Below, piece by piece: positions 12,646-28,553 of a DNA stretch of 64,000 nucleotides; position 1 is the first letter of the stretch; each line of letters starts with the position of its first letter. The DNA is taken from assembly GCA_963745235.1 (NCBI GenBank), contig CAVUXE010000035.1, positions 224,001 to 288,000 on the forward strand. Reading direction: 5' to 3'. This DNA is from an uncultured Spirochaetota bacterium. GTDB lineage: Bacteria > Spirochaetota > Spirochaetia > SZUA-6 > Fen-1364. The notes beneath the pieces are model-generated. The model was not told where the DNA came from. It did not search any database and saw nothing but the letters and a program-made list of their open reading frames with translations. The position numbers and the translations under genes are program-made.

Positions 12646-15600
12646 ATGACCGAACCTGATGGAACGGCTAGGATAATTCCTCACTGGCTCATTCCCGCCT
12701 CCCTGCTGTTTCTCGTTGCCGGTGGCGCCTGGTTCTACGTCACCCAAAAAGACGCTCTGGAGGCGACGGCGAGAGAGAATCTCAACACGATTGCAAATCT
12801 GAAAGTGAACCAGATTGAGCAGTGGCGCGCCGAAAGGCTCGGGGATGCCGCTGAGCTGGTAGAGAGCTCCTTCAATTCCGCGGCGTTGTCCCGTTGGATG
12901 GACGGCACGCCGAGCGAAGGTAGCGACCAGATTCTCACATTGTTTCGTTCCTACCAGGCGTATGGCGGCTACGCCGATATTCTCCTGGTCGATGGCGAAG
13001 GGAAAGTCCGCCTCAGCCTGAGCGGGCATCCATGGGCGTCGGGCGAACAAACCACTCACACCCTTGCCGACGCGTTGCGCGACCATCGGCCGAAGCTGAG
13101 CGATCTCCAGGAGAACGCTGGCAGCCCGGGGCCCTACCTCGATGTCATTGCGCCCCTGTTCGCTGGGAAGGGAGAAACCATCCGCGCTGTGGGCGCGGTC
13201 CTCTTGCGCTGCGAGGCCAGGGATTTCCTCTATCCTCTGATCCAGTCATGGCCACTGTCGAGCCGGACCGCGGAAACCTTGCTTGTGAGGCGGGACGGAG
13301 ACAGCGTGCTGTACTTGAACGAGCTGCGCCAACAGCAACACACCGCGCTCGCCCTTCGGCTCCCGGTGAGCCGCACGGATCTGCCGGCAGTCGCCGCGGT
13401 AGCGGGAGGGGAAGGCGCGTTTTACGGGAAGGACTATCGCGGCGTCCCTGTCGTGGCGATGTTGAAAGCCATCCCCGGCTCGTCGTGGTTCATTGTCGCC
13501 AAGGAAGATGCCGCGGAGGTGCTGGCGGCCTGGCGGTTCCGCTCGCTTCTCATCCTGGCGCTGATCCTGGTGCTCGTTGCCGGGGCCGCTTCGGCCGTGG
13601 TGGCCATCTGGCAGCGCAACGAGAAGAATCGATATCGATCCCGGTTCGAGTCCGAGGCAATGCGACGCGTGGCGGAGGAGCGCTACCGGATCACGCTCTT
13701 GAGCGTCGGGGACGGAGTCATTGCCACTGATGCGGAAGGAAAGGTGCAGTTCGTGAACCCGGTTGCCGAGTCCCTGACCGGATGGCCGCAGGAAGATGCC
13801 CGCGGCAGACCGCTGGAAGAAGTCTTCCACATTCTGAATGAAGAAACCAGGCTGCCGGTTGAAAACCCGGTGAGCAGAGTGATTCGAGAAGGCGTGGTGG
13901 TGGGTCTCGCAAATCACACGCTGCTGGTAGACCGGGCGGGCAGGGAGCGCGCAATTGCGGACAGCGGCGCTCCCATCAGGGACCAGGCTGGGGGGACTGT
14001 CGGCGTGGTCCTGGTCTTTCGCGACATCACCGCGGAGCTGCGCACCCGGCGCGAGCGGGAAACGACGGTTGATCTGCTGCGACTGCTCAACACGCAGAGC
14101 GTGACGCACGAGCTGATTCGAGAGATAACGGGATTGATGCAGAGGTGGACCGGCTGCGAGGCGGTCGGTGTACGACTGAAGGAAGGGGACGATTTCCCGT
14201 ACTTCGAGACCCGCGGGTTCCCGGCGGATTTTGTCGAAGCAGAGAGGTATCTCTGTGAGCGCGACATCGGCGGGGAGCTGGTCCGGGATGAATCATTCAG
14301 CCCGGTTCTCCAGTGCATGTGCGGCACCGTGCTGCGCGGTCGCGTCGATTCTGGGCTTCCGTTTTTCACCCCGAAAGGAAGCTTCTTCACGAACAGCACC
14401 ACCGAGCTGCTGGCCACGACGTCGGAGCAGGACCGACAGGGCCGGACCCGCAACCGGTGCAACCGGGAAGGCTATGAATCTGTCGCTTTGATACCTCTGC
14501 AGAGCAGTGATGAAACACTTGGACTGCTTCAGCTGAACGACCGGGGCCGCAACCGATTCACCCCAGAGCTCATTTCATTTCTTGAAAGCGCCGCGGATCA
14601 GATCGCCATAGCGCTCGCGCAAAGGAAGGCGCTGTCCGACCGGAAAGAGAGTGAACAACGCTATCGCTCACTTTTCCAGAACATGTTGAACGGGTTTGCT
14701 TATTGCAGGATGCTCTTCACGGACGGCAGAGCGCAGGATTTCATCTACCTCGAGGTAAACAGCGCTTTCGAAACGCTGACAGGGTTGAAGAACGTCACCG
14801 GCAAAAAGGTGTCCGAGGTCATCCCCGGAATCCGGGAATCGGATCCCCAGCTCCTGGAAGCGTACGGGCGGGTTGCGCTGACCGGCCGACCCGAGCGATT
14901 CGAAACCTATCTCGCGGCATTGGATATGTGGTTTTCCATCTCCGTGTACAGACCGGGCGAGGAACATTTCGTGGCCATCTTCGATGTCATCACGGAGCGC
15001 AAGAAGATGGAGGCCGCGCATCAGCTCCTGGTCTCGGCCGTGGAGCAGGCCGCGGAGATGATCGTCATCACCGACCCCGCCGGGATGATTCAATACGTCA
15101 ATCCCGCGTTCGAGACCGTCACCGGCTACTCTTTTGACGAGGTGATCGGGAGCAATTCGCGCATTCTGCAAAGCGGGGAGCACGACAAGGATTTCTACAG
15201 GAACCTCTGGGAGACGATCATCGGCGGGAATACCTGGAAGGGTCATTTTATCAACAAGAAGAAGGACGGCACTCGCTATTCGGAGGACGTGGTCATATCA
15301 CCGGTGCGCGGCCCTGAGGGTGGCATCGTCAACTTCGTGGCGGTCAAGCGCGACAGCACGCGCGAGCACCTTCTGGAGGACCAGCTTCGACAGGCACAGA
15401 AAATGGAGTCAATCGGCAGGCTTGCCGGCGGGGTGGCGCACGATTTCAACAACATGCTTCAGGTGATCAGCAGCTACGTGGAGATCTCACTGGGGCAGAC
15501 GGAAGAAGGGGACCCCCTTCACCGAAACCTGCTGCAGGTGGGCAAGGCGGCTCGGCGCTCAGCGGACCTCGTCGGACAGCTGCTGGCCTTCGCGCGCAAG

Positions 15601-16518
15601 CAGACGGTGAGCCCCCGGGTCGTGGACGTGAACGAGGCCGTCGGCGGCGCGTTGCGGATGCTCCAGCGGCTCATTGGTGAGGACATCGACATTGCATGGA
15701 TGCCGGGCCATGACGTGGGGAAGGTCAGGATCGATCCTTCCCAGCTCGACCAGGTCCTGGCCAACCTCGCCGTCAACGCGCGTGACGCGATCAGTGGCGT
15801 GGGGAAGCTCACCATTGAGACTGAAAATATGACGATCGACGAAGAGTATCGTTCCGCGCACCCGGGCTTTGTGGCCGGAAACTTCGCGATGCTGGCGGTC
15901 AGCGACAACGGGAGCGGGATGAACCGAGAGACGCTCTCCCACCTGTTCGAGCCGTTTTTCACGACAAAGGCAGTGGGAAAGGGAACGGGGCTTGGCCTGG
16001 CCACCGTGTACGGCATCGTCAAGCAGAACAACGGCTTTATCAACGTGTACAGCGAGCCAGGGCGGGGATCGACATTCAGGATCTACCTGCCCCGGGTCGC
16101 CGAGCAGCCCGAAGATGCTCCGGCCGGAGGAGGCGCCCGAGCGATGCCCAAGGGAACCGAGACAATACTGGTGGTTGAAGACGAAGAGGCAATCCTGGAG
16201 ATCAGCAGAACGCTGCTCGAGAGTCTGGGGTATACGGTTATCAGTGCCGGCACTCCGATTGAGGCGCTTCAACAGGTTGCCGAGCTGAAGAAGCCCGTCC
16301 AGCTTTTGATCACCGACGTCGTGATGCCGCAGATGAACGGGCTCGAGCTGGCAAGACGGCTCGCTGAGACGAATCCCGGATTGAAATGGATATTCATGTC
16401 AGGCTATACGGCGGATGTCATTGCCCATCAGGGCATACTGGACAAGGGAGTTCATTTCATCTCAAAACCGTTTTCGATGAGCGACCTCGCGGAAAAAGTC
16501 CGCGAGGTGCTAGGCTGA
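12646..16518 (+). CDS. Membrane hybrid sensor kinase/receiver (Cache-like, PAS, GAF, PAS, PAS, HisKA, HATPase, REC)
   Basis: Two TM segments; LAGGVAHDFNN, NLAVNARDA, DNGSG, FEPFFTTK, GTGLGL; receiver ILVVEDE...TDVVMP...KPF. Confidence 0.95.
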   Translation: MTEPDGTARIIPHWLIPASLLFLVAGGAWFYVTQKDALEATARENLNTIANLKVNQIEQWRAERLGDAAELVESSFNSAALSRWMDGTPSEGSDQILTLFRSYQAYGGYADILLVDGEGKVRLSLSGHPWASGEQTTHTLADALRDHRPKLSDLQENAGSPGPYLDVIAPLFAGKGETIRAVGAVLLRCEARDFLYPLIQSWPLSSRTAETLLVRRDGDSVLYLNELRQQQHTALALRLPVSRTDLPAVAAVAGGEGAFYGKDYRGVPVVAMLKAIPGSSWFIVAKEDAAEVLAAWRFRSLLILALILVLVAGAASAVVAIWQRNEKNRYRSRFESEAMRRVAEERYRITLLSVGDGVIATDAEGKVQFVNPVAESLTGWPQEDARGRPLEEVFHILNEETRLPVENPVSRVIREGVVVGLANHTLLVDRAGRERAIADSGAPIRDQAGGTVGVVLVFRDITAELRTRRERETTVDLLRLLNTQSVTHELIREITGLMQRWTGCEAVGVRLKEGDDFPYFETRGFPADFVEAERYLCERDIGGELVRDESFSPVLQCMCGTVLRGRVDSGLPFFTPKGSFFTNSTTELLATTSEQDRQGRTRNRCNREGYESVALIPLQSSDETLGLLQLNDRGRNRFTPELISFLESAADQIAIALAQRKALSDRKESEQRYRSLFQNMLNGFAYCRMLFTDGRAQDFIYLEVNSAFETLTGLKNVTGKKVSEVIPGIRESDPQLLEAYGRVALTGRPERFETYLAALDMWFSISVYRPGEEHFVAIFDVITERKKMEAAHQLLVSAVEQAAEMIVITDPAGMIQYVNPAFETVTGYSFDEVIGSNSRILQSGEHDKDFYRNLWETIIGGNTWKGHFINKKKDGTRYSEDVVISPVRGPEGGIVNFVAVKRDSTREHLLEDQLRQAQKMESIGRLAGGVAHDFNNMLQVISSYVEISLGQTEEGDPLHRNLLQVGKAARRSADLVGQLLAFARKQTVSPRVVDVNEAVGGALRMLQRLIGEDIDIAWMPGHDVGKVRIDPSQLDQVLANLAVNARDAISGVGKLTIETENMTIDEEYRSAHPGFVAGNFAMLAVSDNGSGMNRETLSHLFEPFFTTKAVGKGTGLGLATVYGIVKQNNGFINVYSEPGRGSTFRIYLPRVAEQPEDAPAGGGARAMPKGTETILVVEDEEAILEISRTLLESLGYTVISAGTPIEALQQVAELKKPVQLLITDVVMPQMNGLELARRLAETNPGLKWIFMSGYTADVIAHQGILDKGVHFISKPFSMSDLAEKVREVLG

Positions 16519-16932
16519 CGAAGGCAGGACTTTCTCGATCTTTTCCATGACAGGGGCGGGGAGCGCCGGCCTCCCGTTTTGCAGGGCCGTCGTGACGACT
16601 CGGGCCTGGGCAATCAGCTTCTGGTCGGACGTCCTGTATATGTCCTGGCTGCAGATCAGCTTGAGCCGGCCCTCCCGGTGGAAGGCGGAGCGCACGACGA
16701 ACCTGTCCCGGCTTTTCAGGGGATGCCTGTAGTCTATCTCGATCCGCACTGCTACGAGGTCGATTCCATCCTCATGGAGCGCGGCAAAGTCTATTCCAAG
16801 GGATTCGAGCCACTGGTGTCGGGCGTGCTCCATGTAGTGGAGAAAGTTGGCGTTGTTGACAACGCCTTGCAGGTCGCATTCGTAGTCCCTCACCACGAAC
16901 TCGAGCTCATTCTGGTATTTCATCTCTTCCAT
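16510..16932 (-). CDS. Acyl-CoA thioesterase (YbgC/FadM hot-dog fold)
   Basis: VRDYECDLQGVVNNANFLHYMEHAR. Confidence 0.9.
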   Translation of the reverse strand: MEEMKYQNELEFVVRDYECDLQGVVNNANFLHYMEHARHQWLESLGIDFAALHEDGIDLVAVRIEIDYRHPLKSRDRFVVRSAFHREGRLKLICSQDIYRTSDQKLIAQARVVTTALQNGRPALPAPVMEKIEKVLPSSA

Positions 16933-17008
16933 GTTTCCGCCTTCCCCAAGCCAAGATTGACTGTCTTCCAACATGCTGTCAATGTCATCTGCGCAGGAGA
17001 GGACTCCC

Positions 17009-17857
17009 ATGGTCGTCGTTGACAGGGAAAAGTGCACCGGCTGCGGCTCGTGCGTGCAGATTTGTCACCAGCATTGCGTGTCGCTCGTCGAACAGAAGGT
17101 CGCGATCGAGCGCGTCCTGTGCAGCACCTGCACACAATGCGTTGCCATGTGCGCTCAGAAAGCTCTGTCCTGGGACGGAGCTTCCCCTGTGAGCTTTGAG
17201 CCCGCTCTCCTGCCGTCTGCCGCACAACTGGACGAGCTTTTCCGGGAACGGCGGACAATCAGGGACTTCGCTGACCGACAGGTGGACCGCGCGGCGCTGG
17301 AGGAAATTGTTTCCTATGGAGCCTGCGCTCCGACCCACAACTTTGATTTCAGATCCGTTATCATCGATGATCCTGCGCTCATTTCGCTCTTCGGCGAGGC
17401 CGCGTTTCGGTTCTCAAGGCGGATATATCGACTGGTGTTTCGCCCGCGGCTCATCCGCCTCCTGGTTCTCCTGGCTCCGCGCCCTGTGCGCGAAGAGTTC
17501 AGAAAGGCCGAGTCCAAGCTGCGCACAGTCATCGGCAGGGGGAAGGGCTTCGCTACCCTGCCGCCCGACATGGTCTGCATCGTGGGCGACAGGCGGATTC
17601 CCCTGTCCCTGGAAAGCGCGCAGTATGTCCTGTACACAATGGCCCTGTACGCGCAGGTGAAAGGGCTGGCATGCCGCAACCTCGTGGGGAACCAGATGAT
17701 TTTCAACGCGAACAGCAAGATACGTCGGGGACTGGGGCTGCAGAAACACGAGCGCATCTTCGCCGTCGCCGGCTTCGGTCATCCCGCGGTGAGGTTCAGG
17801 AACAAGGTCATGGGAAAGAAGATGCCGGTGCAGTGGAATGGGGCTTCGACCGGCTGA
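17009..17857 (+). CDS. Nitroreductase with N-terminal ferredoxin domain (second paralog)
   Basis: CTGCGSCVQIC, CSTCTQCVAMC, RRTIRDF, GFGHP; SD AGGAGAGG before ATG 17009. Confidence 0.88.
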   Translation: MVVVDREKCTGCGSCVQICHQHCVSLVEQKVAIERVLCSTCTQCVAMCAQKALSWDGASPVSFEPALLPSAAQLDELFRERRTIRDFADRQVDRAALEEIVSYGACAPTHNFDFRSVIIDDPALISLFGEAAFRFSRRIYRLVFRPRLIRLLVLLAPRPVREEFRKAESKLRTVIGRGKGFATLPPDMVCIVGDRRIPLSLESAQYVLYTMALYAQVKGLACRNLVGNQMIFNANSKIRRGLGLQKHERIFAVAGFGHPAVRFRNKVMGKKMPVQWNGASTG

Positions 17858-17884
17858 GGCTCCCTTGGTGTCCCCGCGCGGGGC

Positions 17885-18274
17885 TCACCCGCGGTCATGG
17901 ATCTTGTATTCGAAATCGTAGGAATGCTTTCCGTCGATGATCGTGATGGTCATGGAACCCGTGAGGCCGACAAGCTCGCCGGCCCCGGAGTCCGGCACGA
18001 CGCTGATGGTCAGGTGCGGTTCGCCCCGATTCATGGTTCCGCTGTGCTGGAGCACGAAGGTGCCGCGGCGGCCATGCAGCGTCCCGCTCACGCGTTCCAT
18101 GGCCACGTAACCGACCGACCCCTCGATTTCCGTGCTCGCGCTCAGCATCTCGCCCTTGCTGACTGCTTCGAGGTCTCCCCGGAATTGTTTGTCGATTGAC
18201 ATCCTGCCGATGTACTCGTCTGAATCCTGGGGCACCAGCTTCACTTCAAACGAACCGCTCGCTCGATTTGCCAT
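17885..18274 (-). CDS. DUF3224 domain protein
   Basis: GYVAMERVSGTLHGRRGTFVLQH...VVPDSGAGELVGLTG. Confidence 0.88.
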   Translation of the reverse strand: MANRASGSFEVKLVPQDSDEYIGRMSIDKQFRGDLEAVSKGEMLSASTEIEGSVGYVAMERVSGTLHGRRGTFVLQHSGTMNRGEPHLTISVVPDSGAGELVGLTGSMTITIIDGKHSYDFEYKIHDRG

Positions 18275-19296
18275 ACAGTCAGGGATAATTTCGTCTGGCG
18301 ATCGATGAAAGTCAAACGCCTGTCGGCCGGAGGCCGCCGTGGTTCAGATGCGATCCGCCGGTACGGCCCGGCGCATGCAGGCCGGGGAAGGAGCCCCGCC
18401 TGGCTCACGATCTCCGGGACGCGATGCTCCCACTCGATGGCCATGATGTGGACGCCGGCCACCCCCTCGATGTCCTTCAGCTGCCGGATGATCTCGCAGC
18501 AGATCTTGATGCCCTCAGCCGCCCCTTTTTCCTTCGGGACCGCCTCCATCCGCTTCAGGATCGACTCGGGGATGATTATCCCGGGCACGTTCTCCACCAT
18601 GTATCGCGCCATGCGGAAGGACTTCAGGGGTATTACCCCGGCAAGGATCCGACACCTGGTGTGCACCCCGAGCGCCCTGACCTTTTCCATCCAGTCCGCG
18701 AAGAGGGCCACGTCGAACACGCATTGCGTCTGGGAGAAGTCCGCCCCCGCGTTGACTTTCTTTTCCAGGAGACGAGCCCGGAGCTCGTAGGGGAATGCAA
18801 ATGGATTTGCCGCCGTGCCGATGAACAGGGGAACTTTCCCGGACACCTCTTCGTCGTTCCCGAGCACGCGCTGCTCGTCCCGCAGCCTCTTTACGGCGGC
18901 GACGAGCTGGGTGGAATCTATGTCGTAGACCTTCTTGGCCCCCGGCTGGTCACCCAGGCTGTGGTGATCTCCGGAGATGCACAGGATGTTCTTCACGCCG
19001 AGCGCCGAGGCCCCGAGGATGTCGCTCTGGATTGCGATGCGGTTGCGGTCACGGCAGGTCATCTGCATGACAGGCTCGACGCCCTGCCTCACGAGGAGCG
19101 CCGCGCACGCGATGCTGGACATGTGGACCATTGCGCTCTGGTTGTCCGTGACGTTCACCGCGTCCACCGAGCCGCGAAGCTGGCCGGCTTTCTTCTCCAC
19201 AACGGCGGTGTCGGTGCCCCGGGGCGGTCCGAGCTCCGCTGTCACTGCAAAATGGCCCTCGGAAAGGACCTTCTCGAGGTTGCTTCCGGCTTTCAT
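18241..19296 (-). CDS. metF: Methylenetetrahydrofolate reductase, catalytic subunit
   Basis: VTAELGPPRG, AVNVTDNQ, MQMTCRDRNRIAIQS, KKVNAGADFSQTQ, GVHIMA. The C-terminal extension overlapping DUF3224 may be artefactual. Confidence 0.93.
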   Translation of the reverse strand: MKAGSNLEKVLSEGHFAVTAELGPPRGTDTAVVEKKAGQLRGSVDAVNVTDNQSAMVHMSSIACAALLVRQGVEPVMQMTCRDRNRIAIQSDILGASALGVKNILCISGDHHSLGDQPGAKKVYDIDSTQLVAAVKRLRDEQRVLGNDEEVSGKVPLFIGTAANPFAFPYELRARLLEKKVNAGADFSQTQCVFDVALFADWMEKVRALGVHTRCRILAGVIPLKSFRMARYMVENVPGIIIPESILKRMEAVPKEKGAAEGIKICCEIIRQLKDIEGVAGVHIMAIEWEHRVPEIVSQAGLLPRPACAGPYRRIASEPRRPPADRRLTFIDRQTKLSLTVWQIERAVRLK

Positions 19297-20015
19297 GCGC
19301 TGTCCTTGTCGAATCGCGGGTCGTAGCGCTCTTCGAATCCCCGCTGGACGAGCACTCCCTGTCCTCTTTCGAGCCATTCCTTCGGGGGCTGGATCTCCAT
19401 CATGTCGTCGACCCTTCCCTGGGCCAGCAGTCGGTCGTAGATTGCGTTCCACGCGCAGCGAAGGCCGCCGCCCAGCTCGCATTCGCCATCGGAGCGCGTG
19501 CCTCCGCACGGGCCGTTGAGGACTCCCTTCGAGCAGCGGGAGAGGGGGCAGATGCCTCCCGTGAGACCCAGGACGCACCTCTTGCAGGTGCGGCAGCGCT
19601 CTTCGTACAGCCCGACGTCGACGTCGACGCCGATGAACATTGTGTCAAGCGCCGGGAAAACGGGCTTGGTCGGGTACCTGTCTCCCAGGTTCTGCGTGCC
19701 CGCTCCACAGGCGCCGGAAAGGATGCAGTCCGCGTTCTGGACGAGGTCCGTGATGTCTTCCAGGAACTGCGCGTTGCATTGCCGCTCCACGGTGACGCAG
19801 GAGAACTGGAGGGGTACCTTCTCCCGGCGGGAAAGCTCCGTCAGCTCCTCGTTCAGGGCCAGGACTTCTCTCTGCCCTCCCGCCATGCAGACCGAGGTGC
19901 AGCCGCCGCAGCCGACTGTGAGCACCTGGAGGACGTCCCGCGGGCGCCGCTTCTCCTTGTAGCCCCGTATCAGCGCGAATATCTCTTCCAGGGGCTTTTG
20001 CTTTGCCTTTACCAT
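19293..20015 (-). CDS. metV: Methylenetetrahydrofolate reductase Fe-S/Zn subunit
   Basis: GCGGCTSVC, VERQC, ACGAG, ERCRTCKRC...GGICPLSRCSKGVLNGPCGG...C...CAW; SD GAGGAGG. Confidence 0.9.
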   Translation of the reverse strand: MVKAKQKPLEEIFALIRGYKEKRRPRDVLQVLTVGCGGCTSVCMAGGQREVLALNEELTELSRREKVPLQFSCVTVERQCNAQFLEDITDLVQNADCILSGACGAGTQNLGDRYPTKPVFPALDTMFIGVDVDVGLYEERCRTCKRCVLGLTGGICPLSRCSKGVLNGPCGGTRSDGECELGGGLRCAWNAIYDRLLAQGRVDDMMEIQPPKEWLERGQGVLVQRGFEERYDPRFDKDSA

Positions 20016-20034
20016 TTCCGGTTCCTCCTCGGCG

Positions 20035-20427
20035 TCATGCGTTTCGCTCACCGTCGTACGTGCGGAAGACGCCTCTTTCTCTGCAGACGCTGCGGGCGCA
20101 GGCTATCAGTGACGGGATGCTGACCCCGACGGGGCAGTAGCAGCGCATGCACAGCACGCACCGGTCCCAGACCAGCTCATTGATCGCGCGATACTCCGCT
20201 TCGGACAACCTGCCTTTTTTCCGGTAGATCTTTCCGATCGAGTTGATGGCTTTGTACGAAGGGGTGTAGCCGGGGTCCCCGCCGCTTGACTGGAACTTGA
20301 AGCAGCTCTCAGCGCAAAGGGCGCAGTGCATGCACGCCTGGAGGGACAGCTGGATCATTTCCCTGTTCCTCGTGAGAACACGCGAGATGCGATGCGCCGT
20401 GATGGCGTCTTTCGTGGATTCGTTCAT
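20035..20427 (-). CDS. Small 4Fe-4S dicluster protein (HmcF/DsrK/HdrC N-terminal-like, no CCG domain)
   Basis: CMHCALCAESC...YTPSYK...CVLCMRCYCPVGV; ATGA-coupled to the upstream gene. Confidence 0.85.
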   Translation of the reverse strand: MNESTKDAITAHRISRVLTRNREMIQLSLQACMHCALCAESCFKFQSSGGDPGYTPSYKAINSIGKIYRKKGRLSEAEYRAINELVWDRCVLCMRCYCPVGVSIPSLIACARSVCRERGVFRTYDGERNA

Positions 20428-21392
20428 GCGCCCCTTCCCCAGGCCCTTCTGGCCGGCTTCCATGCATACTCCCCCGAGGCGGAGAACCGGGAGAAAAGGA
20501 GGAACGGCATGTGGCCCAGCTTCGTGAAAGGGATTGCCAGGAGGACCGCATCTCCCGCGACGATGTGTCCAATCATCAGCCATCGTGAAGAGGAGACATG
20601 GTGGTAGAGCATCAGGCCCGTCACGAACGGGGCAAGGACCAGCACCAGGATCAGGTAGTCATACAAGGTTGAAAGCACGCGCACCCGCGGGACGGCGAGG
20701 CGGCGCACAAGGAAGAAGCCGCCGAGGAGGACAAGGATAATGGTAAGCCAGTCGGCGAGCTGCGCGGGGATGGCAGGCAGCCGCGCATGAATGCTGTGGT
20801 ACAGGATCATGTTGTGCGCGGGAAGGAGCAGGGGAACGAGAAACAGGAGGACGTGAAAGATGAGGCTGACCGTCCTCATTGTCGGGTGGGACAGGCTTTT
20901 CGGCCCGGCGGGTCCCACGAACAGGATTGACCGCAGGGATCGCCGCGCGGGAGGAGAAGCGGCCACGGCGGGTCGTGGGGAAAGGGGCCCACGCGCGGGC
21001 CGCCGTCTGGTGAGCCGTATGAACTGCCGCAGCCTGTACAGGATTCCCAGCGCAGCCGCCAGGAGGCAAAAGCGGAGAGCAGGCCCCGCCGCGAAGTTGT
21101 AGAGCGTGCCCGAAAGCTCCCGCTGCGTCCTGGGCGCTCGCGAGGCAGAGCCGGTGGCAGCCGTGCCGGCGCCGGGTGCCTCATGCTCTGCCCGTGAGGC
21201 CGACGTGGTTGCATCCACGGTGGCGCGGGAAGCGGAGGTCGGTCCTTCCTTCGGCGCTTCCGCGGTTGTCCTGGATGCCGAGGTCGTTGCGTCAGCCTGT
21301 TCCGCCCAGGAGAGGGCAGGGGTGATGCAGATCACGATTGCAAGAGCCCCCGGCAGCCAGAGCCCGCTCCGGGGGATGCGTTTGACGGGCAT
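20424..21392 (-). CDS. HmcE/DsrM/NarI-like di-heme cytochrome b membrane protein with signal peptide and periplasmic TSAS repeats
   Basis: FHVLLFLVPLLLPAHN, RRLAVPRVRVLSTLYDY, GHIVAG...IPFTKLGH (four His). N-terminal signal peptide, then DATTSASR twice, GPTSASR and ATGSASR. Confidence 0.82.
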   Translation of the reverse strand: MPVKRIPRSGLWLPGALAIVICITPALSWAEQADATTSASRTTAEAPKEGPTSASRATVDATTSASRAEHEAPGAGTAATGSASRAPRTQRELSGTLYNFAAGPALRFCLLAAALGILYRLRQFIRLTRRRPARGPLSPRPAVAASPPARRSLRSILFVGPAGPKSLSHPTMRTVSLIFHVLLFLVPLLLPAHNMILYHSIHARLPAIPAQLADWLTIILVLLGGFFLVRRLAVPRVRVLSTLYDYLILVLVLAPFVTGLMLYHHVSSSRWLMIGHIVAGDAVLLAIPFTKLGHMPFLLFSRFSASGEYAWKPARRAWGRGA

Positions 21393-21399
21393 GCCTTGC

Positions 21400-22038
21400 C
21401 TACGCGCCGACGATGGCCTTGAGCTTCTCCGCCGCTGAGGCTGCATCTGCTGCATAGCCGTCAGCGCCGATCTCCCGGGCGTACTGGTCCGTGAGCGGCG
21501 CCCCGCCCACCAGGAACTGCACCTTGTCGCGAAGCCCTTCCTTCAGGAACCGGTCAATGACGTCTTTCATCCCCGTCATCGTCGTGGTGAGGAGGGCCGA
21601 CATCCCGATGGCTTTGGCGTCCGGGTTGTCCTTCAATCCCTGGAGAAACTTGTCCGCCGAGACATCGATCCCCAGGTCCACCACTTCCATTCCCGCTCCC
21701 TGCGCCATCATCTTCACGAGGTTCTTCCCGATGTCGTGCAGGTCTCCCTTCACCGTGCCGAGCAGCATCTTCCCGATTGGCTTTATGCCCGCTTTCACAA
21801 GCTCGGGGCGGAGGATCTCCATGCTCTGGTTCATGGCCCGGGCAGCGATGAGAACCTCGGGAATGTATACCTCATTTGCCTTGAACCGCCGGCCGATCTT
21901 CTCCATCCCGTCCAGGAGTCCCTGGTTCAGGATTTCCCCGGCGCTCTGCTTTGCCGCAAGAAGTGAGGATGTAAGCTCCTTCGCCGCGCTTGCGTTGCCC
22001 TTCTGGATTGCCTCAGAAAGCTCCTGATATGTCGCCAC
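21400..22038 (-). CDS. Corrinoid (cobalamin-binding) methyl-acceptor protein, MtaC/MttC-like
   Basis: YIPEVLIAARAM cap domain, GTVKGDLHDIGKNLV (DxHxxG), SALLTTT, VGGAP. Confidence 0.93.
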   Translation of the reverse strand: MATYQELSEAIQKGNASAAKELTSSLLAAKQSAGEILNQGLLDGMEKIGRRFKANEVYIPEVLIAARAMNQSMEILRPELVKAGIKPIGKMLLGTVKGDLHDIGKNLVKMMAQGAGMEVVDLGIDVSADKFLQGLKDNPDAKAIGMSALLTTTMTGMKDVIDRFLKEGLRDKVQFLVGGAPLTDQYAREIGADGYAADAASAAEKLKAIVGA

Positions 22039-22107
22039 CGTCCACCTCTCTTTCGGGCGTTGTTCGTGTCCGTGTGGCTTCATCATGCATCCGGAATCAC
22101 CGGGCGT

Positions 22108-22135
22108 ATTGTATGATTCGTGCCCGTTTTGTAAA
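22108..22135 (-). promoter_or_regulatory. Putative sigma70 promoter of the corrinoid-metVF operon
   Basis: Minus strand TTTACA-16nt-TACAAT. Confidence 0.5.
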
Positions 22136-22188
22136 ATTCTGCTATTCGCCGGGTGAGGGATTTCCAGCGAGGCTCCTCAGCGTGAAGG

Positions 22189-22926
22189 CTATGCCTTTCG
22201 AGCCTTTGACCGCAGCCTCTTCTTGGGTGTCGCTGCCCTCTTTCGCGCGGCGGGGCGTACCGGCTTCGGAGACGCCAGCTTTTTCAGCTTCTTCTCGAGT
22301 GAACCCGAATATTCCTCCAGATGCAGGAGGACATTGAACACGTCCTCGAGCGCCCGGTCGTAGAGCTCGCGGGCGCGAGCGGGATTGGCTCTTGTCAGCT
22401 CCTTGACGTCGTGGAAGGCGACAACAGTGTTGTCCTCCGCGGCAACGATGTCCGCTGGCCTGCTTTTCTGGTGAAAAATGGCTGCCGAGCCGGCCATGGA
22501 TCCCTGCCGGTACTTGAGGCCGGGGAGTCCCGCGTTCTGGGCGGACCCGCGTACTATTTCGCAGGCCACCGCGATGCCCTCTCCCTTGTCGAGGATAACG
22601 TCTCCACGATTGAAAGTGCGTGTGTCGCCCGCGGCCTCCGCGCCCTCCACGGGCTGAGTGAACACCGAGCCGGATGTCAGGCCTCCGAGGCGCTCGTAGG
22701 ATCCTGAGACCTTGAAGATCTCCGGGTTCGCAAGCTGGTGCTTTCTGCCGTGCAGTGCGTCGTGCTTTATGAATGCCATGTTTTTGGCTATTTTCAAGGC
22801 TTCCGAGTCCACGTCCGCCTCGGTGACGCCCATGAAATTTTCCTTGACGATAAACTCCGACGCAAAGGTGCACCCGGGTTCCCGGCACCTGATCTTGTAT
22901 ACAGCTTCCTTGAGCCTGAAGGACAT
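22189..22926 (-). CDS. Cyclic-nucleotide-binding (CAP_ED-like) domain protein with Cys/His N-terminal domain and basic tail
   Basis: FNRGDVILDKGE...IVRG...RPADIVA resembles a cNMP barrel; SD AGGAGG. Confidence 0.7.
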   Translation of the reverse strand: MSFRLKEAVYKIRCREPGCTFASEFIVKENFMGVTEADVDSEALKIAKNMAFIKHDALHGRKHQLANPEIFKVSGSYERLGGLTSGSVFTQPVEGAEAAGDTRTFNRGDVILDKGEGIAVACEIVRGSAQNAGLPGLKYRQGSMAGSAAIFHQKSRPADIVAAEDNTVVAFHDVKELTRANPARARELYDRALEDVFNVLLHLEEYSGSLEKKLKKLASPKPVRPAARKRAATPKKRLRSKARKA

Positions 22927-23041
22927 GGTTGGCCTCCTGTCGATGCGACACTCAGAATTTCATATGAATACCGCGCCATTTTCCATCACATTTGAGGAAA
23001 AAGCAACGGTGAGCCGGGCTGACAAAAGACGGGATGCGCCG

Positions 23042-23987
23042 TTATCGCGCGCGGATGGCGTAGGGAAGCTGCCCGTGTATGGTGCCGGCAGAAGGATCCG
23101 CGCTGAACCGCCACAGTCGCACGGCCTCCACCACAGCTGCGTCGACCTCGTTGTATCCGGACGACGCTTCCACGTTGACGTCCCTGAGGAGCCCATCCGG
23201 GGTGAGCGTGAAAGTGACCAGGACGGTGAGACTGAGACCCTCCTTGCTCACCCACTGCGGGATCTTTGGCTGCGGAGACGCGAGGAGCTTGCGGGCCTTC
23301 GCTGCGCCCGGCTGGTCCCACTGGAAGCGCAGGTCACCCGTGCCGCCTCCACCCTGGCCCGCGTTTCCGCCTCCCCCGCCACCGCCTCCGGAGGCGGCTT
23401 CCTCCTGGCCTCCGGATCCCTGTGCCCCTGCCGCAAGAGACTTGTCCAGGGAGCCCAGGTCCAGCGCGCCCTTCGCGGGAGCCTGCCCTCCGCCTTCCAC
23501 CAGCACCCCGCGCGCGGGCGCGCCCGTCGGGGCTCCTCCGCCGGTTGCGGCGGCGCCCCCTTCCTGCGAGGCTTTCACGCGCGGAAACACAGGCTCCTGC
23601 ACGGGCGATGTCGCCGGCTGAGCGCCGCCGGCCTGGAAGTTGCTCGGTCCGGCCGCTCGAAAAGCGGGCCCGCTGGGTTGGGTCGGCCCCGTGCTCGTGC
23701 TCTGGCGAGGCGTCGGAATCACGAAACCCTGGCTGCTGCCGCCTCGGGACTGCGTCGTGGCGGTTGCCGCAACCTGGGGTTGTCCGGGCAGGAAGAGCGG
23801 GGCCGCTCAGCGTGCCCGGCACGAGGTCCACGCTCACCGGCGCGAGGTTCGACGGGCTCTGCAGGCGGACAATCGCAAACAATACGAAAACAAGAATGTG
23901 CAGGAGCACGGCGACGAGGAACGCCGCAAGGAGGCGTCTGGAATCGCTGTGCTGAGGGTCCATCATCTGCTGTGCTGCGCTGCTCAT
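23042..23987 (-). CDS. TonB family energy transducer, frameshift at ~23790
   Basis: TM segment with His (AVLLHILVF), Pro/Gly-rich linker, TonB_C (VTFTLTPDG...SSGYNEVDAAVVEAVRLWRF). Confidence 0.85.
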
Positions 23988-23998
23988 CTTCAGCTCTC

Positions 23999-25646
23999 TT
24001 AGAAGCTCAATCTCAGGCTCGCCACCACGCGGAACCCGGGCTCCGCGTAGGGGTACAGGCTCGGCCCAAAGCGATCACCGCCCAGCAACGGCCACAACAG
24101 GTCATACAAGTCCAGACGGAGCTGGGCGGGCTCCGACACTCGCACGAATCCTCCAACGTCCAGCTCAGGGAGCTGGGCGGACGGAGGCAGCCCGGTGAGC
24201 ATTGTCACGGCGACCTGTCCCCCGTACGCTCCCGTGGTCTCCATGGCAATCGCCTCCGCCGTTATCTCGTCCACCGCAACGAAGGACGGCCTGTCCATGA
24301 GCTCTCGATTCCAGCTGCCGCTCAACGTGACGCCCGGAGTGATTGTCCACCGAACACCTGCGTCGCCGGTGAGCCGGTTGGCGGCCCGCTGGTCGACCAG
24401 GAAGAGACCCGTGGTGGATCCGGATCCGCCAGGCACGGGATAGAAACTGCCTCCCGCAAAGGCATCCGATGTCAGCATGTTGGTGCTGCTCATGAACGAG
24501 AGCCCGGCCCTCACGCTGAACGATTCAGCGAGGGCAAGCTGGACACTCGCATCTGAGAACCATCCGCTGTCATCCACGAGGTTCACAGGAATAAGGTACG
24601 GGTTGAGGGCAAGAATGTCACCTGCATCATAGGTGACCACCTTGTAGCCAAAGGAGGCATCGATGGTGAGGGCCGAAAAGGGCGCCCCGGTCACATGGAT
24701 CGAAAAAGGAAGCAAGCTGTTGCCCTGGGAGCTCAGGAACCATGCGATGGAGCCCTCCAGGAGGAGCGACCCGGGGAAATCCAGGGCCATCGAAAGTCCC
24801 GTGTTCAGCCGCTGAACCTGGTCGTCACTGCCGGTGTACAGGTGCGCCAGGCGGTAACTGTAGTCGCCGGATATCCCGGCGGTGAATATCCCGGAGTGCG
24901 CGCTCGCCGACAGGTGCGATGCCCCCTTGTACTCGCTTGCCTGGCCCGGACCCGCTACGCGTGCCGGCGAGCGTCAAAGAGTCGGTGAGCCCCGTGACGG
25001 ATCCGTCCACGGTCAGCCAGTCCAGGGGCTGCACGCTCAGTGTGGCGGTGCCGTCAAGGTTGCGGCCCAGCCGATAGAAGTAGTCGGTGCTCTGGTTCTG
25101 CAGTCCCATCTCTTTTTCAGCGTAGCTTCCCTGGAAGCCTCCGTTGAAAGGCCCGAGTCGGCCGGACACATTTCCCGCTATCGAGTCGGTCCGCGTGTCA
25201 AAGCCAGATCCCTGTGCCTGCCCCGAGATGCCATCCGCCGTATCGTGGGCAAACGAAAGGCTGGCCTGGGCGTTCTGGCCGGTCGTGGTCACGTTGAGGT
25301 CACCGACCACCCGGTTCTGCGATCCGATTCCAAGGGTTGCCTGCGTTGCCAGCGGGCGGGGAGGGCTGGCAGGTCCTCCCAGGGGATCGGCGCCTTCCAC
25401 TGCCAGGCTTCGGACCGGCGGCTCCACGGCCAGCTCCGGCGCTGGCGGCAGAAGGACGTCCGTTTTCACGATGACCGGGGCCTCGGCTGGCGGCAGCATG
25501 GACTGGACGTTTTCCACGCTCAGGTCCTTGATGTCGAGGGTCACCTCCGGCAGGACAAGCTCGGGGGCCGAGGGCTGGTCCGCCGCCGCGGCGAAAGCGG
25601 GGAGGAGGACCATCATGACGAAGGAGAATCCGCTCAGTCTGCTCAT
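23999..25646 (-). CDS. Outer-membrane beta-barrel protein (~550 aa), frameshift at ~24960
   Basis: Signal peptide, LVLPEVTL near the N-terminus, alternating amphipathic strands, C-terminal beta-signal GFRVVASLRLSF. One continuous ORF after removing one base. Confidence 0.7.
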
Positions 25647-28553
25647 TTCCCCGCCTCCAGCAGCTTCCTGGCCTTGACCGTCCACGCCGACGAGGGGAAG
25701 CTGTCTGTCATCTTCTTCACCAGCGCCTGCACCTGATCCGGCCGCTCCCCAAGCTTCATCATTTCGGCAGCCCGGTAAAGGGCGGATGCCGAAAAATCCT
25801 GATCCCCTGCTCCCGTGGCAGCGGCCGCTACAAACCTCTTTGCCGCTTCCATCAGGTCACTCCTGCGATAGAAGTATTCACCTTCGAGGTACTGGGCGTT
25901 TGCCGCCATGGCCCCGCTTGCCTGCGCGGCAACCTGCTGGAGCATCTGATACCCCTCTTCGACTTTCTTGTCTCCGCTGTAGATGTACAGCCGTGCGAGG
26001 TCGACAGTTGCCTGCAGGCGGGCATCGCCGCTGGAATGCGCGATGCGCGTCTTGAGGTCAGCCTCCGTGGCGTCAAGGCCTTGGACCTGGTAGCGCAGCT
26101 TTTCCGCCGCGATGTCCGCCTTCGCGAGGCGGGCCTCGTTCGGGTAGTCGGAAATGAACCGGGTGTAGAGATCCAGGGCATGCTTGAGGTCATTGGCGGC
26201 CGCGTAGACCTCGGCAGCCTTCCGCAGCGAGGCGGCACGGAAGGGGCTCGTTCGATACGTGTTGGCAAGCTGCTCCCAGAGGAGCGCAGCGTCGAACTTC
26301 GCTCCGGTGTTGCTGGCCGCTTCGCCGCCCCAGTACAGGGCGGCATCATGCAACCGCCCGTTCGGGTACTTGCGCCGGTAATCCGTGAACGCGGTTGCCG
26401 CGGCCGCGTAGTCGTGCTGGTTGAACATCGTTTCCGCCAGTCGATACGTCGCTTCTTCCGCAAGGGGGCTTGCGGGGAACTGACTCACCAGGTCCCGGTA
26501 AGCACTCACAGCGCCTGAGGGTGACCCGGAAAGCGCCTGGACGCCCGCGTAGTCGAAGAGGGCGCTGTCCGCAAAGGAAGATCGCGGAGAGGAGTTGATG
26601 ATTCCCTGCAGGGCGTTGGAGGCTTCCGTGAGCCTTTTTGCATTCATCAGGCTCTTTGCGTAAAGGTAGAAATCCTTGTCCGCCGAGCTCTTGTCCCCTT
26701 CCGCCTGGGCAGCCCGGGAGAAATAGTCCGCTGCCTTGTCGAAGTCCCCGAGGTTGTAATGGCTCCACCCCGCCAGGAAGAGGATCTTCGGGGTGAGGGC
26801 ATGGAGCGGATATGCCGCGGCCAGGCCGTCAGCGGTTGCCGCGCTGTTTTTGAAATCTGCCGTTTTCGAATATGACCACGCCAGGTAGTACCCCAGGTAC
26901 GGCACGATCATTCCGAGCCCGTTCGCCTGGGCCGAGTTCGTGTCAATTTTTCCGAGAGTCTGGACGGCGCCGGCGTAATCCTTCACGGCTACCTGGCTGA
27001 GCCCGAGCAGATACGAGGCAAGGATGCCGTTCCGCGGGCTCCTGGACGCCGCGGGAGCAATGGCCGCCGGGGCTCCCTGCTGAACCGCCTGGTACTGCTT
27101 TGCCAGGAACTGCATCTCCAGAAGGTCCACGGTGGCGTCCACGTCCTGGGGATCAAGCCGGGCGTACTCCTGCAGCGCGCCGGCAGCCCCGGCGAAGTCC
27201 CCCTTCTTCCTGTCGATCTCCGCCTGCAGGCGAAGGAAATCCGGCCGGGTGCTCCCCGCCGTCGGGAGATACCTGGAGACCAGGGCCGCGCTCTGATCCA
27301 GCTTGCCTTCCTGAAGCTGCACATCGGCAAGAAGCGCCGCAGCGCGCGAGGTGTCGGGAGATTTCGGATGCTCACTCAGGAAACGCTGAAGGATGCTTTC
27401 TGCGAGCACAAGCTTACCGGAGTCACGCGCAAGGGCCGCCAATGCAAGCACCGCCGCCTCCGAGGCGGATCCTGGCTGGGTTATGTAATCCTGCAGGAGG
27501 GCCTTTGCCCCGGCGCTGTCCTTTCGGTCCTGCATGATCCTGGCGAGGTAGATCGGCACCGTGCTGTCAACCTTGTAGGAGGCGCGAAGGGCCCAGGCCC
27601 TCCGGAGGTAGAGGGACGCCGCGTCAAGGTTTCCCTTCTTGTAGTATTCGACGCCGATCCCGGCCCAGATGTCCATCATGACTTGCGGCGTCCCGGGCAA
27701 AGTGGCTTTCCATTTCCTGCCCGAGTGATTCCATCCGGGGCAGGTCCGTCTTCGACTCCGCCGCCGCGAACAGCCGGCGGTAGGCGGCCACCGATATGTC
27801 TGGTCGTGCGTTCCGCAGGTCCATGTAGATGGCAAGAGCGTCCGCCTGGCGGTTGTTCTCCCAAAGGCCCTCCGCCCGGTTCCAGAGAAACTCCTGGCTC
27901 AGATCTGCCGGAAGAGACGCAAGGTCAGCGCTTGCGGCGAGCTGCTCCAGGGCGTCCCAGGACTTCTCCTTTGCGAGCAGGGAGGACAGCAGGACGAGAG
28001 CCGGCCCCGCGGCTTCGGACCGCGGATAGGCTTTCAGGAGCTGGCGTGCGGCATCCTCCGCTTCGGGCAGTTTCTGCAACGCCTCCAGGTCCAGGGACTT
28101 GCAGAGAAGCGCCCGGGGGACCAGCTCTGGATCCTTGCCCGTGGTCAGGTATTCATTGAGGGAAACCAGGCTCGGTGTGTACCGGGAGAGCCGGTAAAGC
28201 GACAACCCCTGCCACAAGGGGACTGCGTCGAGGTAGCGCGTCCAGCGATAGCGCAGGGAAATCTCAGTCAACAGGTCTGTTGCCGCCTGGTAGTTGCCCA
28301 GCTGATAGAGGCATACCGCGCGGCGGTACTGCACGTCGGCCAGGAGGTCAGAGGAAGGATACTGTTGAAGGAACTCGTCGTACTGGACGAGTGCCGCCGT
28401 GTAGCTCTTGTTGAGAAAGCGGCTTTCTGCTTCGGTGAACAGCTCGCTGTCGGCCGGAATTGCCCACAGGGATGCTGGTCCCAGGAAAAGCACGAGAATT
28501 GCCGCGTACCGCAGACGCCCGGCAGCAGCCCTGGTCCGCACGTTGTTTTCCAT
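25643..28553 (-). CDS. Large periplasmic TPR protein (~970 aa, CpoB/BamD-like repeats), frameshift at ~27696
   Basis: Signal peptide and repeated F/Y-P-x-S TPR motifs (QYPSSDL, YPRSEA, HPKSPD, FPASPL, YPNGRL, FPSSAW). Confidence 0.88.

Follow-up and report, generated by a model that had tools for sequence, protein, structure and literature searches.

Within a 64,000-nucleotide (nt) stretch of the genome of an uncultured Spirochaetota bacterium (assembly GCA_963745235.1, contig CAVUXE010000035.1, positions 224,001 to 288,000; hereafter the window), five minus-strand genes lie between positions 18241 and 22086. They encode a corrinoid protein, a NarI-type cytochrome b, a 130-amino-acid (aa) iron-sulfur (FeS) protein with two [4Fe-4S] clusters, and MetV and MetF, the two subunits of a methylene-tetrahydrofolate (methylene-THF) reductase (MTHFR). 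A first-pass annotation, made from the letters alone, had described five tightly packed genes with two ATGA overlaps and gaps below 20 nt. This layout was confirmed in the sequence, where the cytochrome b and FeS genes overlap at 20427-20424 and metV and metF at 19296-19293, while gaps of 7 nt and 19 nt separate the corrinoid gene from the cytochrome b gene and the FeS gene from metV, respectively. The same annotation had proposed that MetVF is wired through the small FeS protein to a membrane cytochrome, and it is this proposal that we evaluate here.

The cytochrome b gene (20424..21392, minus strand) encodes a 322-aa protein of the NarI/TmcC/HmcE di-haem type, with a predicted signal peptide (residues 1-30), a periplasmic tail (31-95) and a five-helix core (approximately 96-322). 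Pfam recognized it narrowly, with a Nitrate_red_gam (PF02665) score of 24.7 bits against a cut-off of 22.9 that covered only residues 195-284 of the long open reading frame (ORF), and a profile of 22 homologues matched E. coli NarI (1q16_C, E = 2e-4). The AlphaFold2 (AF2) model contained five helices, with a predicted local distance difference test score (pLDDT) of 83-94 in the core. A Foldseek search with this model returned NarI chains as all top eight PDB matches (probability 1.00, target template-modeling score 0.49-0.53). Four histidines (His180, His193, His276 and His294) were invariant in 22 as well as in 65 homologues. They form pairs on helices II and V, and the 18-residue spacing on helix V aligns with that of NarI. 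We infer that His180/His294 and His193/His276 ligate two b haems, one near each membrane face. Domain match, profile, fold and the four histidines all agree with the earlier assignment of the membrane protein as a NarI/HmcE-type di-haem b subunit.

The FeS gene (20035..20427, minus strand) encodes an HdrC-like 2x[4Fe-4S] adaptor with Fer4_8 and Fer4_17 domains, in which eight cysteines (C32, C35, C38, C42, C90, C93, C96 and C98) were invariant in 60 sequences. Its AF2 model had a pLDDT of 93.3 and its best fold matches were HdrC chains from heterodisulfide reductase (5odc_I/C and 8rvu_C; HdrC probability 1.00). The fold search was needed for this placement, as a PDB sequence search gave spurious TPR/PPR matches and found HdrC only at E = 0.73. 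The nearest sequence relatives were the N-terminal parts of CCG-domain proteins resembling TmcB, HmcF and HdrD (34-36% identity). The C-terminal CCG domains of those proteins are not part of the FeS protein, which ends at residue 130. A CCG query matched only one contig (C52) of the genome, which is 85.7% complete with 5.9% contamination, and no gene adjoining the cytochrome b gene in any of the MetVF-type loci described below; in one locus (L056), two CCG matches lay at both ends, more than 6.5 kb from the cytochrome b match. The protein has no signal peptide and is therefore placed in the cytoplasm. Sequence and model both identify it as a CCG-less helical ferredoxin of the Hdr type, that is, a CCG-less form of TmcB/HmcF/HdrD. 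The first-pass annotation had called it a stand-alone dicluster protein with no CCG, Etf or Hdr partner; it does stand alone without a CCG neighbour, but the protein is itself Hdr-related.

MetV (19293..20015, minus strand, 240 aa), the small FeS/Zn subunit of MetVF-type reductases, matched the DUF5981/MTHFR C-terminal family (PF12225) with 107.4 bits. Thirteen cysteines were invariant across 53 sequences, and a PDB sequence search with the protein found no relative. Among 401 genomes from the phylum, a MetV profile found matches in 72 at E ≤ 1e-40; at E ≤ 1e-94 there were 16, the genome under study (G000) among them. These are counts of MetV relatives rather than of the whole module. MetF (18241..19296, minus strand, 351 aa), the flavin subunit, scored 141.5 bits with Pfam MTHFR (PF02219). 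Columns of its catalytic region were conserved among homologues, which stop near residue 306, and the remaining C-terminal tail of approximately 45 aa (window 18241-18380) was unconserved. The adjacency of metF and metV, which overlap by ATGA, places the pair among MetVF-type reductases. The first gene of the operon (21400..22038, minus strand, with a GTG start at 22038 and an ATG at 22086 also open) encodes a corrinoid (B12) methyl-carrier protein of the MtgC/MtbC type. Pfam B12-binding (PF02310) and B12-binding_2 (PF02607) scored 90 and 75 bits, and the translation contains a DLHDIG stretch fitting D-x-H-x-x-G, which we take to be the B12-binding loop motif; the B12-binding Rossmann domain, helical cap and loop that define this family were all found. 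Only two corrinoid carrier genes were detected in the genome by tblastn, one of them in the operon. The other, whose product is 84% identical (contig C35:96755-97390; locus L093:6753-7460), has no methyltransferase beside it and stands alone between genes for an NHL-repeat protein and for subunits of a 2-oxoacid:ferredoxin oxidoreductase.

We surveyed gene neighbourhoods by a pattern scan with the cytochrome b alignment across 185,579 species genomes (one genome per species), which gave 154 matches, 90 of which encode a relative. Locus counts rest on the best 80 of these 90 relatives. They come from tblastn searches with the window proteins plus six additional queries, under fixed rules: E ≤ 1e-6, a query cover of 40% or more, and a position close to the cytochrome b match on the same strand. 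The cytochrome b, FeS, metV and metF genes occurred on one strand in 60 of the 80 loci. Two loci (L039 and L061) held three of the four core genes, four were cut by contig ends (L008, L037, L052 and L073), and 14 were of a CCG type without MetVF. In one counted locus (L033) the contig ends, and the metV that was counted belongs to a second metVF pair just upstream. Record titles, which include labels of metagenome-assembled genomes, named Spirochaetota, Thermodesulfobacteriota (many of them Syntrophales/Syntrophaceae), Planctomycetota, Myxococcota, Acidobacteriota and Thermodesulfovibrionia. Hence, the genetic tie between MetVF, a stand-alone dicluster protein and a NarI-type membrane protein, as the first-pass annotation had anticipated, is conserved in five or more phyla by record title. 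Its suspicion that related clusters exist in sulfate reducers was borne out by loci in sulfate-reducer-type lineages, and its attribution of the DNA to a spirochete fits the nearest relatives, whose titles name Spirochaetia.

Three gene orders were found among these loci. In Syntrophales-type loci the genes are interleaved (MetF-cytb-FeS-c3-MetV, with or without a second MetF). A second order is cytb-FeS-MetV-MetF followed by genes for a multihaem cytochrome c of 500-650 aa, an NrfC-like and an NrfD-like protein, and the spirochaete order is cytb-FeS-(c3)-MetV-MetF. Pfam searches of representative loci confirmed the cytochromes (Cytochrom_CIII), NrfC and NrfD. The linkage of the core genes is far beyond chance, and we consider it very probable from this pattern that the four core proteins work as one unit. 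A complex prediction for MetF (residues 1-306), MetV and the FeS protein with alignments scored 0.14 against a mark of 0.32, which speaks neither for nor against binding. Two further arrangements were seen. Five Syntrophales-type loci (L020-L022, L025 and L046; approximately 3.6-6.5 kb) carry a NuoF-like (Complex1_51K) gene just upstream of the MetF-cytb-FeS-c3-MetV block, followed in L020 by a 2Fe-2S/NuoG-like gene according to Pfam, which hints at an added NADH-linked input there. Four loci (L023, L029, L033 and L073) have another metV-metF pair immediately upstream of the membrane-linked block, so that an enzyme of the soluble type neighbours one of the membrane type.

The 14 CCG-type loci were the most distant of the set (approximately 30-35% identity). 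Their FeS part forms the N-terminal section of a CCG-domain protein of 380-460 aa, and the clusters also carry either a small c3 or a multihaem cytochrome c with NrfC and NrfD, in a Tmc-like or Hmc-like manner; one of them comes from a cultured strain, Desulfacinum infernum DSM 9756. In a quick maximum-likelihood tree built from 50 rows of cytochrome b, with 31 loci omitted (match shorter than 190 aa translated or with a stop), the CCG type stood apart from the MetVF type with a Shimodaira-Hasegawa-like approximate likelihood ratio (SH-aLRT) support of 99. The likeness of the CCG-type loci to Tmc and Hmc, together with this split, identifies the module on sequence grounds as a Tmc/Hmc-type transmembrane conduit with MetVF in place of the catalytic CCG part. 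In DsrMK, HdrED and QmoC, too, a NarI-type cytochrome b meets an Hdr-type FeS protein on the cytoplasmic side of the membrane. The partners in these systems have CCG domains or are HdrA-like, and the substrate is sulfur or heterodisulfide, whereas the partner here is a folate enzyme. Tmc (TmcABCD) and Hmc (HmcABCDEF) of Desulfovibrio-type sulfate reducers, whose subunit roles are in part general knowledge, share with the operon a NarI-type cytochrome b and a cytoplasmic helical 2x[4Fe-4S] protein, wired to the periplasm. In contrast to them, the FeS subunit here has no CCG domains and MetVF stands in their place, while the window carries a motif-bearing cytochrome b tail instead of any cytochrome c. 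The part of PMC4215793 that we draw on portrays Hmc and Tmc as conduits leading across the membrane from the oxidation of hydrogen in the periplasm, and gives their cytoplasmic redox partner as not known.

Four MTHFR classes are distinguished in the available part of PMC9430772, none with a subunit containing transmembrane helices, and the four soluble types listed by the first-pass annotation agree with that account. Membrane-associated MTHFR activity has been reported, with the membrane partner left as a question mark (PMC9430772 and PMC6895022, each in part). The Hdr-type enzyme (class IV; MetFV-HdrCBA-MvhD of Moorella thermoacetica and Sporomusa ovata) resembles the window operon in its MetVF core and HdrC-like ferredoxin, and for this class too an association of the activity with membranes was reported and the membrane link sought (PMC9430772, same part). 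None of HdrA, HdrB and MvhD was found among the ORFs of positions 14000-27000, and, unlike the class IV enzyme, the operon here encodes an integral membrane subunit. We found no MetVF encoded with a NarI-type cytochrome b, and no flavinylation of the NarI/DsrM type, in the published full-text literature, subscription papers lying outside the search. The MetVF-cytochrome b-FeS arrangement thus appears to be conserved yet undescribed.

The periplasmic side of the module varied between loci. A separate periplasmic cytochrome c gene was present in 53 of the 66 MetVF-type loci, and in five spirochaete loci four CxxCH motifs, forming a tetrahaem c3 domain, were fused to the cytochrome b. The window operon contains no cytochrome c ORF, including none for the tetrahaem cytochrome c3 of Tmc. 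Instead, the Sec-type leader of its cytochrome b, ending in SWA, is followed by a 65-residue tail (21129..21293, minus strand) with flavinylation-like repeats: DATTSAS at residues 34-40 and 60-66, and two degenerate copies, EGPTSAS at 49-55 and AATGSAS at 78-84. The repeat pattern, D-A-x-[ST]-[SGA]-A-[ST], resembles the target motif of the flavin transferase ApbE, given as D-x-x-[S/T]-G-A-[S/T] in the part of PMC12052999 consulted. We counted motifs in 72 database homologues and the window protein, of which 12 were dropped for want of a landmark and nine had no tail, leaving 52. The motif occurred in 49 of these 52 tailed homologues, against 0.002-0.07 expected per shuffled tail. At least two copies were present in 32 of 35 tails without CxxCH, compared with one of 17 with a fused tetrahaem c3. 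With the CCG group as root, the tree placed the cytochrome-free clade (eight rows, SH-aLRT 91) inside the cytochrome-bearing spirochaete rows, which suggests that haem c was lost along with multiplication of the motif. Of the 36,270 open frames with 80 aa or more in a six-frame reading of the genome, only two had two clustered motifs, in both cases at the N-terminus of a NarI-type protein.

The second of these proteins (291 aa, no signal peptide; contig C52:173218-175350, locus L092:4219-6349) carries DAVSAAS and DAVTSAS at its N-terminus, and its gene is flanked by one resembling DsrE/DrsE_2 and by an HdrD-like FeS/CCG gene whose reading is split over two frames. Of the 120 relatives listed for the protein, 109 had between one and three motifs within the N-terminal 90 residues, the Gly position usually being Ala. 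When this paralogue (P0078) was compared with 401 genomes of the phylum, 41 matched, and its motif-bearing tail was essentially unmatched: outside G000, matches began at query residue 53 or later, with 32-39% identity, except in G369, G283 and G031.

NarI has its N-terminus outside the cytoplasm. The Sec-type leader, and the haem c domain that relatives have fused in this position, predict an extracytosolic motif here as well. The genome holds two ApbE genes with lipoprotein-like leaders, on two contigs (C9 and C62) other than that of the operon, and ApbE was present in all five related genomes tested. Glycosylation of the tail was considered and rejected, as neither of the sequons D-[ST]-[AILVMT] and D/E-x-N-x-[ST] matches it. 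Several observations weigh against flavinylation. AF2 predicted a disordered tail without a folded domain for flavin mononucleotide (FMN) binding. The window copies have Ser at the canonical Gly position, where relatives have G, S or A (for example DATSGAT and DAVSGAS), and a Gly-to-Ala change in one enzyme left approximately 50% flavinylation (PMC12052999, part consulted). ApbE was also found in eight of 14 control genomes and is thus common, none of the 80 loci had an apbE closer than 8 kb, and two ordinary FMN_bind proteins of the genome could account for its two ApbE genes. On balance, flavinylation of the cytochrome b tail is a nearly even call, falling slightly on the doubtful side.

Transmembrane cytochromes associated with flavinylation have been proposed before, in MsrQ-like, PepSY-like and DUF4405 proteins that would likewise combine haem b across the membrane with extracytosolic, ApbE-installed covalent FMN (available parts of Meheust 2021, PMC8238504, and Huang 2024, PMC11334425). 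The same sources describe flavin and cytochrome c as interchangeable between related clusters. The window protein differs from those cytochromes in its NarI-type fold, in the disordered tail that bears its motif, in the Ser or Ala that replaces the Gly of that motif, and in the lack of an adjacent apbE. In the main text of PMC8238504, NarI, nitrate reductase gamma and cytochrome b are each mentioned zero times, as are NarI and cytochrome b in that of PMC11334425.

The rest of the genome offers a methyl-oxidizing context for the operon. It contains three MttB-family (MTTB) methyltransferase genes. Genes for serine hydroxymethyltransferase, a 267-aa Pterin_bind protein resembling MeTr/MtgA and FolD follow one another (contig C9:90276-93444, locus L089), and the same contig holds an MttB-family gene (105652) and Fhs (179953). 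A YitJ-like 626-aa homocysteine S-methyltransferase-MTHFR fusion, followed by a GltD-like FeS flavoprotein (C37:226121-228001, locus L084:375-2255), is probably the biosynthetic MTHFR for methionine, freeing the MetVF operon for catabolism. A search for CdhC/acetyl-CoA synthase (ACS) gave no match in the incomplete genome, so that an acetogenic sink for methyl-THF is not evident. The first-pass annotation had left methyl oxidation and energy-conserving reduction as alternatives; the former fits this genome, with its MttB, MeTr-like, FolD and Fhs genes and no ACS match, and the latter is less favoured here. It had likewise left coupling to quinones or to the periplasm. The periplasm is the better supported, by the cytochrome c genes and fused c3 domains of the related loci, and no clear menaquinone synthesis was found. 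The suggested search for quinone, haem and methyltransferase genes returned the three MttB-family genes and a ferrochelatase, with no match to MqnA/D (PF02621) in the incomplete genome and none to menA above the cut-off. The ferrochelatase match lies in two frames with a TGA at the junction (contig C33:16142-17045), reflecting an assembly error or a broken gene. We regard an oxidative direction in this organism as probable and, on a separate count, a periplasmic partner rather than the quinone pool as about equally so.

Taken together, we favour the reading that the operon encodes a membrane-integral MetVF methylene-THF reductase, built on a Tmc/Hmc-type conduit and flavin-tailed, that exports electrons oxidatively to the periplasm; we hold it probable as a whole. 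The electron path we draw follows from the anatomy of the operon and from homology. MetF, through its flavin, and MetV, through its FeS centres, would interconvert methyl-THF and methylene-THF in the cytoplasm, the HdrC-like protein would shuttle electrons between MetV and the cytoplasmic face of the cytochrome b, and the two b haems would carry them across the membrane. In most lineages the periplasmic partner would be cytochrome c3. In this spirochaete lineage cytochrome c would have been lost, and the exported, disordered tail, with two to four ApbE-type motifs, would bear covalent FMN, from which electrons would reach an acceptor in the periplasm or outside the cell. Under this scheme MttB-family methyltransferases would load methyl groups onto the corrinoid protein of the operon, a MeTr-like enzyme would move them to THF, and MetVF would oxidize methyl-THF, a step with an E0' of about -200 mV (PMC9430772 and PMC6895022, each in part). 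FolD and Fhs would then take the carbon on to formate, yielding ATP, while the electrons leave through the membrane, their outward flow aided by the membrane potential. Where relatives have periplasmic cytochromes c, electrons could take the same path inward, with energy being conserved. For the peat spirochaetes, a tentative and rather doubtful extension would be a cytochrome-c-free 'methyl respiration', in which methyls of quaternary amines pass to the membrane MetVF and on through the multi-flavin tail to acceptors such as humic quinones.

Certain features of the genome and of the loci weigh against the reading we favour. The corrinoid gene adjoins the module in only four of the 80 loci (L001-L003 and L047). 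A search of the incomplete genome for class III cytochromes (PF02085) gave no match, an absence weakened by that incompleteness, and the missing ACS, cytochrome c3 and menaquinone genes are in general not shown to be absent by a genome of this quality. The NarI family typically has a quinol site, its type member oxidizing quinol, and the menA model matched four UbiA-family prenyltransferase genes at 62-82 bits, under the cut-off of 102. These last points would suit a quinone-coupled MTHFR, in which the cytochrome b exchanges electrons with a menaquinone pool in either direction and the tail is only a linker, and quinone-dependent MTHFR activity has been reported in membranes of Thermacetogenium phaeum (PMC6895022, part consulted). 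This is nevertheless unlikely in our judgement: neither a MqnA/D match nor a menA above the cut-off supports a menaquinone pool, the periplasmic cytochromes c of most loci and the fused c3 domains would be superfluous for a purely quinone-facing subunit, and the described role of Hmc and Tmc starts from periplasmic hydrogen oxidation (PMC4215793, part consulted).

A second alternative is a reductive, energy-conserving function, in which periplasmic donors would reduce methylene-THF and a redox loop would generate a proton gradient, as proposed for cytochrome-containing acetogens. Membranes of Sporomusa ovata reduce methylene-THF with H2 (PMC9430772, part consulted), and a reductive role is likely in relatives whose module sits with periplasmic cytochromes c. 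The genome under study yielded neither an ACS to consume methyl-THF nor a cytochrome c3, methionine synthesis has its own fused MTHFR and the operon begins with a methyl-carrier corrinoid protein; we thus consider a reductive role decidedly unlikely in this organism. Finally, the genes may be loose neighbours, with a soluble, ferredoxin-dependent MetVF and a cytochrome b/FeS pair that serves another cytoplasmic partner. Purified MetVF enzymes do use ferredoxin in vitro without membrane subunits (PMC9430772, part consulted), and the complex prediction gave no answer on binding. Yet the four genes keep together in 60 of 80 loci, in several phyla by title and in three gene orders including an interleaved one, the ATGA overlaps suggest translational coupling, and an FeS protein that has lost the CCG catalytic domain of its relatives needs a new catalytic partner, which makes mere adjacency very improbable. 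An electron-exporting, membrane-integral MetVF remains the reading we prefer.

Directly upstream of the operon lies a gene for a 245-aa protein (22189..22926, minus strand) with a weak cyclic-nucleotide-binding-like middle (Pfam cNMP_binding, 18.8 bits, under the cut-off) and a Lys/Arg/Ala-rich, histone-like tail. Three loci (L001-L003) have this gene at the same position and on the same strand, ahead of the corrinoid gene, at 68-75% identity, and the remaining 77 loci do not; the protein may act as a regulator or belong to the operon as its sixth member. The single promoter-like site reported by the first-pass annotation is present (TTTACA-16-TACAAT, 22108..22135, minus strand, 10 of 12 matches). 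A scan of the region found one site against a mean of 0.7 in shuffles, and since shuffles yield as many such sites, the site alone carries no weight. Three metatranscriptome runs, all from a single study under the label peat metagenome, yielded zero-mismatch RNA contigs of approximately 200 nt that fell within 21704-22119, over the corrinoid gene and its leader, one of them reaching 22119, beyond the -10 box. Only short contigs and small word shares were available; MetF had only partial matches of 35-44 nt and the cytochrome b, FeS and MetV genes had none, a gap that is uninformative. The corrinoid-gene contigs are a weak hint of expression, as DNA carry-over is possible. Downstream, the end of metF overlaps the start of a DUF3224 gene (17885-18274), which was found in none of the 80 related loci and is thus not part of the module. 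Beyond it, on the opposite strand, are genes for a ferredoxin-nitroreductase fusion (16973-17857) and a 1290-aa multi-PAS hybrid sensor kinase (12646-16518).

What appears to be new here is the combination of known modules, MetVF and a Tmc/Hmc-type conduit, to which this lineage would add a flavin-based periplasmic end. How the methylene-THF/methyl-THF step is tied to the membrane and to the conservation of energy is a long-standing question for acetogens, syntrophic acetate oxidizers and methyl-oxidizing anaerobes. The operon family supplies a concrete, genetically linked membrane partner and would count as a fifth class of MTHFR, while the Tmc/Hmc family would gain one defined catalytic partner. 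If the proposed periplasmic end is correct, fold-less multi-flavin tails on NarI/DsrM-type cytochromes would be an unrecognized class of ApbE substrates and the flavin-based equivalent of the cytochrome c3 pool. On a NarI-type cytochrome b, short tags of the ApbE type may in this way take over from a periplasmic cytochrome c, which would widen the known range of flavinylation and of electron export in cytochrome-c-poor bacteria.

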